Of a stretch of DNA of 64,000 nucleotides, positions 46,126-47,641 are shown piece by piece (position 1 is the first letter of the stretch; each line of letters begins with the position of its first letter). The notes under the pieces were generated by a model. The model made no database searches and was not told the origin of the DNA. It saw only the letters and a list, made by a program, of their open reading frames with translations. This stretch comes from Holosporales bacterium. GTDB taxonomy: Bacteria > Pseudomonadota > Alphaproteobacteria > Holosporales > CAZGKG01. The stretch lies in NCBI GenBank assembly GCA_044361745.1, contig JBIKIF010000002.1, positions 23,119-87,118 of the forward strand. The letters run 5' to 3'. Position numbers and translations under genes: made by a program.

Positions 46126-46594
46126 GTTGAAGAGTCTTGCATCATCTTTTCGTTTCATGTTTTTGGTGATGCTTTTGTCTGTGGAGATTGGCAGACCTCG
46201 GGTTTTGGATGATGGCGCGTTCTTCAATAAGGGGGATCAGATTTCCAAAAGCGTCATCAGGAATGGTTGACTCGTGGACCATTCAATCAGGATAAAAAAT
46301 ATGGGCACAATCAAAAAATAAAAATTACGTAGTTTTTCTATTGGTCGCACAAAGGATGGAGGGTGAATAGATTGCTTCATCTTTTTTGTCTTTTTGTTGC
46401 AGGAAAAGGAAAAGCAAGCCTGCGATATGACTTTGAGCTCCCATAAAATTCCGAAAATTCTAAAAATTGACATTTTAATTGCCTGATAGCAATATTATTA
46501 AGCGAAATATTTTTCACCTCAATCAGTGTAAAAATATTCTTTTTGAGATTGTTTTTTTGGGAGATATGTGGTGGTTTTGGATGAAAGAATCCGC

Positions 46595-47641
46595 ATGAGA
46601 AATGTCAGGGTCGTTCTCGGCGTGTTCAGTGCTTTGTGGATGAGTCCTTGCATAGGGGACAAAAGTGCCATCAAAGCTTTTAAACATGTTGCATTGAAGC
46701 GCGCTTCGATACAACCAGCGGGAAAAACCGAAAAAATTTGTGTGCCACAGAATGAGATTCCTCTCTCTTTTCCGAGCCCACGTAGAGAAATTCAATTAAG
46801 CAATTTGGATTCTCTGGCCTTGTTTTTGTCTTCAAAAATCCCCAATACAGCGATTGTGAATGCCGCGAATGCGGAGAATCCAGGAGGGGGGGTTCGAACG
46901 AATGGTTTCGTTCAGGAGGAAGTGCTTTGCACGATGACAAATCTCTTACCGTCATTGGAAAGTGGAAAAAAAAAGTTTTATCCCTTAAGGGGGAGGGGCC
47001 AAAGGGGGTTTTTGTGGACTCGCAACGTTAGCCCAATAATCCGGGTGCCTAAGCTCGACTCTAAAAAATTCTTGAGCGAACAGGTTGTCAATCAGTATCG
47101 GAAGAATCCGTCTTCTGTTTTTTTAACACCAGGATCGATGCAATCAAAATCACGCTTTAGCGTTTTTTCAATGGCAGCACCTCGACGAAAAAAGATTAAG
47201 AAACTGAATCAGAAGAGATTGTTTTGGGATATGTTCCACCTCTATAAGGGGTGCTTTGAGATGTTCCATACCCATTCTTTGCAGCATCACAACAAAAATG
47301 GTCTTTTAATTCTTACCATTCCCGGCAGTGGTGACTTTGCTCACAGATCAGACGGAAGCGTTGATCACCGCTACCTAGATCTTAATGTTTGTGCTTTGTC
47401 AGCGGCTTTTCTGTCTGTGAACCCTTGTTTTTTCACCATTATCCCCCGTTCAGAAATTGATGGGCGCAATTTGGGTCAAGAGGTTGTGCGGTATGTGAAG
47501 AACCAACGCCTTCTGGTGTCTAAGTTGCGTACTTATCAAATTTCCAGCTCTTTGAATCAAGCTTCCGCCTCAAGAGACGGGTCTGGCTGCCTCCTAGGAT
47601 CCAGCCCTCTGCAGCTGCTCAGAATCAGACTTCGGCGGTAG
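46595..47641 (+). CDS. Macrodomain protein of the microbial PARG-like (TIGR02452/DUF2263-type) class, with signal-like N-terminus
   Basis: AIVNAANAENPGGGVRTNGFVQEEVLC matches the PARG signature GGG-X6-8-QEE (nt 46883-46921). A later block, LLILTIPGSGDFAH, resembles the second glycine-rich loop. N-terminus MRNVRVVLGVFSALWMSPC. The ORF is open from GTG 46568. Confidence 0.5.
   Translation: MRNVRVVLGVFSALWMSPCIGDKSAIKAFKHVALKRASIQPAGKTEKICVPQNEIPLSFPSPRREIQLSNLDSLALFLSSKIPNTAIVNAANAENPGGGVRTNGFVQEEVLCTMTNLLPSLESGKKKFYPLRGRGQRGFLWTRNVSPIIRVPKLDSKKFLSEQVVNQYRKNPSSVFLTPGSMQSKSRFSVFSMAAPRRKKIKKLNQKRLFWDMFHLYKGCFEMFHTHSLQHHNKNGLLILTIPGSGDFAHRSDGSVDHRYLDLNVCALSAAFLSVNPCFFTIIPRSEIDGRNLGQEVVRYVKNQRLLVSKLRTYQISSSLNQASASRDGSGCLLGSSPLQLLRIRLRR

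Follow-up and report, generated by a model that had tools for sequence, protein, structure and literature searches.

A divergent PARG-like protein with a likely export signal, encoded in a sharply bounded hypervariable cassette of a Holosporales bacterium

What is a gene for a poly(ADP-ribose) glycohydrolase (PARG)-like protein doing between hscA and a solitary rplQ? The question is raised by a 64,000-nt stretch of a Holosporales bacterium (assembly GCA_044361745.1, contig JBIKIF010000002.1, positions 23,119 to 87,118 of the forward strand), called here the window, in which the gene occupies positions 46571 to 47641. An earlier note, made from the letters alone, had described a PARG-like macrodomain protein with a signal-like N-terminus and a nuclear localization signal (NLS)-like patch, and had offered two readings, an exported effector acting in a eukaryotic host or the antitoxin half of an ADP-ribosylation system. 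The analysis reported here makes the locus noteworthy on three counts: the likely export of the protein, its sharing with giant-virus-like genomes, and a sharply bounded hypervariable cassette. We favor, with a probability of about 0.45, an exported ADP-ribosylhydrolase used in inter-organism conflict that would erase ADP-ribose marks, with the ADP-ribosylation of a eukaryotic (protist) host as the preferred target.

The open reading frame (ORF) 46568..47641 on the + strand encodes 357 residues from the GTG at 46568 and 356 residues from the GTG at 46571. The latter is the point from which the three known alleles align and is the start used in the public record P0001; a GGAG at 46560-46563 ends 7 nt 5′ of it. 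The ORF and the motifs were found where they had been placed, with GGG from 46883, AIVNAANAENPGGG and LTIPGSGDFAH all present. The odd location was likewise recovered: hscB-hscA lie 5′ and rplQ stands alone 3′ of the gene, and the A+T-rich spacer, put earlier at about 440 nt, measures 442 nt (46126-46567) at 36% G+C. The coding sequence and its two ligand loops are:

46571..47641, + strand: PARG-type coding sequence, divergent microbial type (Pfam match; start aligned in three alleles)
46880..46921, + strand: PARG signature loop PGGG-VRTNGFV-QEE, PGGGVRTNGFVQEE, residues 105-118 (aligned to the loop of the T. curvata and D. radiodurans PARGs, TcPARG and DrPARG)
47312..47344, + strand: diphosphate-binding loop LTIPGSGDFAH, residues 249-259 (aligned to TcPARG LVLGAWGCGVF)

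The family is defined by a macrodomain fold that is extended at the N-terminus and bears the signature GGG-X6-8-QEE (PMC8120803), and bacterial-type PARGs act on poly(ADP-ribose) and on ADP-ribosylated RNA ends (PMC11833690). The two family profiles that had been proposed as a check gave different answers. PF10021, the microbial-type PARG catalytic domain, matched at 45.6 bits (E=1.2e-11; gathering score 23.5), the match being limited to residues 75-148 (profile positions 55-129 of 146). TIGR02452, a hypothetical equivalog of NCBIfam, scored 30.5 bits, below its curated cut-off of 50, so that the protein is to be regarded as a divergent relative and not as the equivalog. A single-sequence search reached the solved structures of DrPARG (E=0.002) and TcPARG (E=0.01) weakly, while a profile built on the seven-member subfamily described below matched TcPARG with E=1.2e-13 in two blocks. 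The first block is the catalytic GGG...QEE loop, and the second comprises the APNR strand exit, a helix and the GAWGCGVF loop. In the window protein, the signature is laid out as G106-G108, X7 and Q116-E117-E118, with E117/E118 as the predicted catalytic glutamate pair. The diphosphate loop keeps G253, G255 and F257 (Gly-x-Gly-x-Phe); compared with the family pattern GA[FW]GCG[AV]F.N, Ala is replaced by Pro, Cys by Ser and Val/Ala by Asp, and the Asn is missing. Residues G107, Q116, E117, E118, G253 and G255 are invariant in an alignment of 22 sequences. The altered loop IPGSGxF may mark a changed substrate preference.

An AlphaFold2 model computed on the 22-sequence alignment reached a mean predicted local distance difference test (pLDDT) of 83 and a predicted template modeling score (pTM) of 0.80, and was unconfident at residues 1-29 and 338-352 alone. 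Searched with Foldseek, its best matches among solved structures were TcPARG 3sih (E=1.9e-9, target template modeling score (TMt) 0.60) and DrPARG 5zdc (TMt 0.62). The top three, 3sih, 3sig and 5zdc, were found at E values of 1e-9 to 1e-6 with TMt of 0.60-0.62, and were followed by canonical eukaryotic PARGs. The structure prediction that had been called for thus returned the two bacterial PARGs as the nearest folds. With the Pfam score, the intact catalytic loop and the retained Gly and Phe residues of the altered diphosphate loop, this bears out the assignment to the PARG-like macrodomain proteins, and the protein can be described as a divergent PARG-type ADP-ribosylhydrolase that is probably active. 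Its GGG-X7-QEE and Gly-x-Gly-x-Phe loops would cut ADP-ribose from poly- or mono-ADP-ribosylated substrates. In PARGs of the microbial type, a C-terminal ribose cap limits the enzyme to exo-glycohydrolase activity. The isoelectric point (pI) is 10.5 for the window protein and 9.5 and 9.75 for the two other alleles; such high basicity of the whole protein would suit the binding of a polyanionic substrate.

The subfamily is small. When 1.84 billion representative proteins were scanned exhaustively with HMMER, 31 matched at E<=1e-3, the closest being P0001 (the public copy of the window protein), P0005 (46% identity), P0006 (44%) and P0002 (32%). A collection of 5.8 billion sequences contained three alleles only, and a scan of the GTDB species-representative genomes with the allele profile gave no match. 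Seven proteins carry the loop [IL]PG[SC]G.F[AS], namely the window protein, P0005, P0006, P0008, P0002, P0013 and P0022. A motif census restricted [IL]PG[SC]G.F to this clade, the rest of the family having GA[FW]GCG[AV]F.N. Among full-length proteins, G-[FT]-V-QEE replaces G-A-x-A-QEE only in the four bacterial members; it is also present in the truncated fragment P0017. In a neighbor-joining tree with 200 bootstraps, the seven-member clade was supported by 200/200, its alphaproteobacterial branch by 195/200, and the branch of P0002, P0013 and P0022 by 200/200. The contigs of P0002 and P0022 (20-134 kb) are dense in ORFans and also code for ankyrin proteins, a core histone and an Rpb5 subunit, a gene content that suggests the signature of a nucleocytoplasmic large DNA virus. 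The contig of P0013 measures 3.2 kb. Protist giant viruses, including Bodo saltans virus, Orpheovirus, Pandoravirus and Marseillevirus, commonly encode PARGs of the microbial type.

On the bacterial side, P0008 and the partial orthologue P0017 adjoin a terminase of the gene transfer agent (GTA) type in two other alphaproteobacterial assemblies. This second lineage, with a PARG-like orthologue beside the GTA-type terminase, is represented by L109 9815-11818 (GCA_965186715.1) and L111 1179-1715 (GCA_051657225.1). The L109 gene contains an in-frame TGA at codon 33, recovered in an independent Logan assembly too, followed by an ORF of 605 residues that includes a Gly-rich insert as well as a long extension at the C-terminus. 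The RpoB protein of the window organism has at most 63-64% identity to those of GTDB species representatives, its best relatives being scattered over the Alphaproteobacteria.

Comparison of the alleles revealed that the gene is exchanged as a block, whose parts are:

46126..46305, + strand: left homology arm, conserved non-coding DNA 3′ of hscA (about 97% identity to L005, 88% to L006)
46306..47630, + strand: hyperdivergent allele cassette, comprising an allele-specific upstream part (about 260 nt) and nearly the whole coding sequence (DNA identity)
47558..47638, + strand: allele-specific C-terminal tail, residues 331-357, ending LLRIRLRR (read-through)

On L005, a contig from ENA, P0005 lies in the same place between hscA and rplQ. 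The helix-turn-helix (HTH) regulator, RlpA, Ffh, SmpB, HscB, HscA and L17 are 98.4-100% identical between the window and L005, whereas the PARG-like proteins share 47%. At the DNA level, identity was 97.7% up to 46308 and collapsed at 46305/46306, the left arm ending at '...AAAAAATATGGG' (46305). Inside the cassette, 60-nt windows showed 0-68% identity to L005 against 95-100% outside, and blastn aligned the catalytic core only (70% identity). Near-perfect identity resumed from TTCGGCGG at 47631, with one mismatch in about 75 aligned nucleotides. The third allele, on L006, diverges at the same point on the left; its initial 95 nt correspond to window positions 46209-46303 at 88%.

Between the window and L005, the PARG-like gene had a non-synonymous divergence (dN) of 0.51 and a synonymous divergence (dS) of about 1.5, against dN of 0-0.008 and dS of 0.03-0.08 for the flanking genes. 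The alleles are therefore far older than the genomic backbone, and the block was acquired by recombination and did not evolve fast in place: whole-gene alleles of ancient synonymous divergence have been swapped by homologous recombination among genomes that are nearly identical elsewhere. Three other origins of the block were rejected. An assembly chimera was ruled out because independent assemblies agree on each allele together with its flanks, one allele being present in the window, L001 and L002 and the other in L005 and L087. A site-specific cassette or island was discarded since the borders contain no direct or inverted repeats, integrase or tRNA, which also favors homologous recombination over a mobile cassette. 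Finally, a diversity-generating retroelement or targeted mutagenesis was dismissed, as the block includes non-coding DNA with indels and its dS is saturated.

The ratio dN/dS (omega) ranged from 0.18 to 0.87 by region. It was lowest in the catalytic core (0.18-0.45, depending on the allele pair) and came near 0.9 in the N-terminal linker of the least saturated pair. The low values in the core point to a functional gene that is loosely constrained outside the active site. They also bear on the idea that this is a decaying or functionless acquired gene, to which its rarity in databases, the read-through C-terminal tail and the in-frame stop of the L109 relative would lend some color. However, the three alleles, very divergent as they are, all have an unbroken ORF and retain every catalytic and ligand-loop residue, and the core has the lowest omega in every pair, so that we consider decay very improbable.

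The tail itself is explained by the comparison: the TAA stop of L005 aligns with the CAA at 47558-47560 of the window, and the last 27 residues are homologous to the 3′ untranslated region (UTR) of L005. Its residues 338-352 were predicted with pLDDT <50. The C-terminal RIRLRR had been considered as a type IV secretion signal and was rejected as a conserved feature, the tail being read-through of the other allele's 3′ UTR. Repeats were seen elsewhere in the other two alleles: at the end of P0006 (L006 273-1457), a repeat similar to GKSAPTSASSAA occurs three times in tandem, and in P0005 (L005 6781-7827) the motif (L)ITRDFSK is duplicated within the variable linker near the N-terminus.

Diversification was also observed in the second lineage. 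The terminase genes of L109 and L111 differ by dN 0.029 and dS 0.52, and the adjacent PARG-like genes by dN 0.32 and dS 0.63, that is a dN 11-fold above the neighbor gene. This comparison shows the same diversification tendency, followed in a different way. Back in the window, a small patch of lowered identity with an indel between strains was noticed at 48199-48424, around the 5′ end of a 333-residue ORF (48326-49327) located 3′ of rplQ. This ORF has no Pfam domain, and its product is 92.5% identical between strains, compared with 98-100% for the other neighbors.

The second property that calls for explanation is the N-terminus of the protein:

46571..46657, + strand: N-terminal signal-like segment, residues 2-30 (hydropathy, model, allele conservation)

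It consists of an Arg-rich n-region, MVLDERIRMRNVR, an 11-residue hydrophobic core VVLGVFSALWM (V15-M25), and a Ser-Pro break, SPCIG. Sec signals cleaved by signal peptidase I combine a positively charged n-region, a core of 7-15 hydrophobic residues and a polar c-region with small residues at -3 and -1. The Kyte-Doolittle profile peaks at 2.24 at residue 20, and the AlphaFold2 model places residues 2-24 in a detached helix of low confidence. The motif G-V-x-x-A-L-W-[MI]-S-P-C-[IV]-G is kept in all three alleles, which are 42-50% identical overall, while the 50 residues that follow are only 27-32% identical. By inspection, cleavage might occur at S-P-C| or C-I-G|. The sequence W-M-S-P-C, with Pro at -1, does not fit the lipobox [LVI][ASTVI][GAS]C; for comparison, lipoboxes in the same window read LAGC (BamB), LQGC (RlpA) and LTGC (a 215-residue ORF). 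The L111 orthologue opens with a textbook Sec signal peptide, MNLKQNILLGIALLSVSSQA|LT, with an SSQA| site, unrelated in sequence to the window segment, and L109 has the same signal peptide 5′ of its annotated start. The homologues from giant-virus-like contigs have no such N-terminal segment. Given that the three alleles share this motif and that a canonical Sec signal is present in the orthologous lineage, export of the window protein is likely. The signal segment claimed earlier thus exists as a hydrophobic N-terminus, and its role in export gains indirect support from allele conservation and the Sec signal of L111 and L109; what it lacks is a canonical lipobox.

Taken together, the putative Sec-type N-terminal signal would place the action of the enzyme most likely outside the bacterial cytoplasm, and the marks to be erased would preferably be those made by a eukaryotic (protist) host. 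The eukaryotic target is preferred because the sole non-bacterial relatives are found on giant-virus-like contigs, because the bacterial branch has added apparent export signals, and because the alleles are exchanged and the protein evolves fast. Allele exchange and fast protein evolution are typical of host-interaction genes. An effector directed against a eukaryotic host is therefore plausible as far as the sequences go, and would fit both the giant-virus-like sister branch and the arms-race-like evolution. The data themselves establish the family, the integrity of the motifs, the predicted fold, the conserved signal-like N-terminus, the subfamily with its distribution, the borders of the cassette and the contrast in dN and dS; that the protein is exported, active as an enzyme and aimed at a eukaryote, and that selection produced the diversity, is what we infer. 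A broader scenario, which we regard as doubtful, is that this PARG subfamily circulates between protist giant viruses and uncultured alphaproteobacteria, that the bacterial form, having gained an export signal, is secreted against host PARP/ADP-ribose signaling, and that counter-pressure from the host keeps ancient recombining cassettes at a fixed site.

Several observations weigh against an exported enzyme of inter-organism conflict. The SPC break is neither a canonical lipobox nor an AXA cleavage site, and in L109 the signal peptide is split from the enzyme by the in-frame TGA. A Sec signal alone brings a protein of a Gram-negative bacterium only to the periplasm. Omega stays below 1 throughout, so that positive selection is unproven, and with no more than three alleles to compare, a combination of relaxed constraint and recombination is a possible cause of the pattern. 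The 64-kb window contains no host-association marker. The viral nature of the P0002 and P0022 contigs is itself a deduction from gene content, a eukaryotic origin being the alternative, and the TIGR02452 score falls short of its cut-off. Nor can composition be called upon: the G+C content at third codon positions (GC3) of the gene is 0.468 against a window mean of 0.531 (standard deviation 0.065), and since this lies within one standard deviation of the window genes, we do not claim a foreign origin.

The omega values, the non-canonical SPC and the stop codon of L109 would suit an ordinary cytoplasmic PARG of endogenous ADP-ribose or stress metabolism, whose N-terminus is non-functional and whose divergence reflects relaxed constraint and chance recombination. 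The prototypes TcPARG and DrPARG are indeed cytoplasmic (PMC8120803). However, a dS 20-fold over that of the flanks, sharp borders and, in a second lineage, a dN 11-fold over that of the neighbor are not what one expects of a housekeeping enzyme. The N-terminal motif is also kept across very divergent alleles, and a sister lineage independently carries a canonical signal. We judge this explanation quite unlikely and retain the exported hydrolase as the preferred one.

Whether the gene has a partner was addressed with Pfam scans of most long ORFs of the 64-kb window. They identified rpoBC, gatAB, ffh, smpB, hscAB, cox1/2, murG, sucA, fliP and other housekeeping genes, together with several ORFans. 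No ADP-ribosyltransferase (ART), sirtuin (Sir2), PARP or toxin was found among the scanned ORFs, and no ART, Sir2 or toxin next to the homologues in L109, L111 and the giant-virus-like contigs. The PADLOC (defense systems) and PHROGs (phage) libraries gave no match. A possible second PARG-like copy at 32527-32643 on the - strand (tblastn E=0.017) lacks the QEE and is unsupported by the other alleles; it was set aside as a chance match. Two candidate signals border the gene:

46467..46496, + strand: sigma-70-like promoter candidate TTGACA-18-AATATT, in the allele-specific part of the spacer (10/12 consensus positions)
47683..47704, + strand: terminator-like hairpin GTGTCTCCC-TTCG-GGGAGACGC followed by TTATTT, in the conserved right flank

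The promoter candidate is a consensus match alone, in a region with four such sites where 2.5 are expected by chance; the hairpin is identical in sequence in L005.

These results leave little of the proposal that the protein is one half, antitoxin or eraser, of a divided ADP-ribosylation pair, similar to DarTG or SirTM/macrodomain systems, whose writer would be encoded elsewhere. Macrodomain hydrolases do commonly pair with ARTs (PMC8120803), and only 64 kb of the genome is visible. Such pairs are nevertheless adjacent or fused, and no ART or Sir2 gene lies beside it in four independent contexts, nor did PADLOC give a match; moreover, the gene is bordered by promoter-like and terminator-like signals of its own, and an exported antitoxin makes little sense. 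We give this proposal hardly any credence.

The absence of a cognate ART nearby, as well as the hypervariable locus, would agree with a protective hydrolase that reverses the ADP-ribosylation inflicted by ART toxins of competitor bacteria or phages and diversifies in the manner of immunity-type genes. There is a precedent, as the PARGs of S. coelicolor and D. radiodurans strip from the 2′-OH of RNA the ADP-ribose added by the type VI secretion system (T6SS) toxin RhsP2 and were proposed as protectors (PMC11833690). Two points make this detoxifying role unlikely. The known toxin targets (RNA, FtsZ, DNA) are cytoplasmic, whereas the window protein and the L111 orthologue have export signals; and the nearest non-bacterial relatives reside on eukaryote-virus-like contigs, not in phage or defense islands, in line with the empty PADLOC and PHROG searches.

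The earlier note had also described an insertion resembling an NLS:

47177..47218, + strand: basic patch APRRKKIKKLNQKR, residues 204-217, a conserved structural segment
Allele sequence after AP: window RRKKIKKLNQKR; P0005 QRDKMREFKHKR; P0006 NRSNIDNFDQKR

This description did not survive alignment. APRRKKIKKLNQKR aligns with TcPARG APNRRAIGDLRTV / 'APNRRAIGDLRTVEE', which includes APNRRAIG, and every homologue has a segment of equal length at this position. There is consequently no insertion. The model folds the segment as a strand exit and the start of a helix with pLDDT >90, and the K/R cluster at residues 204-217 is found in the window allele only. Because a conserved folded element is concerned, basic in this allele alone, the NLS idea is given little weight.

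A few features of the window were recorded beside the main subject. The recognizable genes listed cover about 72% of positions 1-64000, with many A+T-rich gaps of 300-650 nt and several ORFans. Gene order is scattered (a lone rplQ, rpmJ-rpoZ), and for a free-living bacterium the coding sequence is unusually sparse. Between 31300 and 32780, 1.5 kb are devoid of long ORFs and contain two small ones (31351-31632 and 32108-32401) with signal-peptide-like N-termini. A dispersed repeat of about 60 nt, first seen as extra blastn matches of L087, occurs in intergenic or ORF-poor DNA in copies 88-96% identical, at 49387-49447, 31819-31879 (- strand) and 57536-57560 (- strand). At 40542-41384, a 280-residue protein combines an HTH domain of the Xre type with a weak match to Peptidase_S24 (LexA/CI-like) and is 99.6% conserved between strains.

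Bacterial-type PARGs are usually treated as cytoplasmic enzymes with an uncertain physiological role. If the exported hydrolase that we favor is real, it would point to the erasure of ADP-ribosylation as a weapon in conflicts between microbes and protists. Its sharing with giant-virus-like genomes would then fit gene flow between viruses and bacteria in common protist hosts, and a bounded cassette in genomes that are about 98% identical would offer a natural handle on selection at the enzyme surface.

Among known systems, TcPARG (3SIG/3SIH) and DrPARG (5ZDA-5ZDG) are the best match both by sequence and by fold. They share with the window protein the macrodomain fold with an N-terminal extension, the GGG-X6-8-QEE loop, the APxR strand exit and the Gly-x-Gly-x-Phe loop. 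They differ in that identity over the structural alignment is only 12-15%, in the loops (IPGSGDF in the window protein against GAWGCGVF.N, and G-F-V-QEE against G-A-x-A-QEE), and in that the window protein has a putative N-terminal export signal, is longer by about 80 residues, has a pI of 10.5 and is encoded at a hypervariable locus. DarG of the DarTG system is likewise a macrodomain hydrolase taking off ADP-ribose, but it belongs to the TARG1-like class, is always next to DarT and is cytoplasmic, none of which applies to the window protein. The translocated macrodomain ADP-ribosylhydrolase effectors of intracellular bacteria such as Legionella embody the same concept and serve here as a lead only; they are MacroD-like and not of the PARG type, and use Dot/Icm signals instead of a Sec signal peptide. 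The PARG proteins of giant viruses (Bodo saltans virus A0A2H4UVH6, Orpheovirus A0A2I2L3Q3 and Pandoravirus neocaledonia A0A2U7UDI9) resemble the window protein in fold, with TMt of 0.68-0.75, and the metagenomic P0002, P0013 and P0022 share its IPG[CS]G.F loop and form its sister branch. Proteins of this giant-virus type differ in that identity is only 26-33%, and in that they have no signal peptide and would act directly in the host cell.

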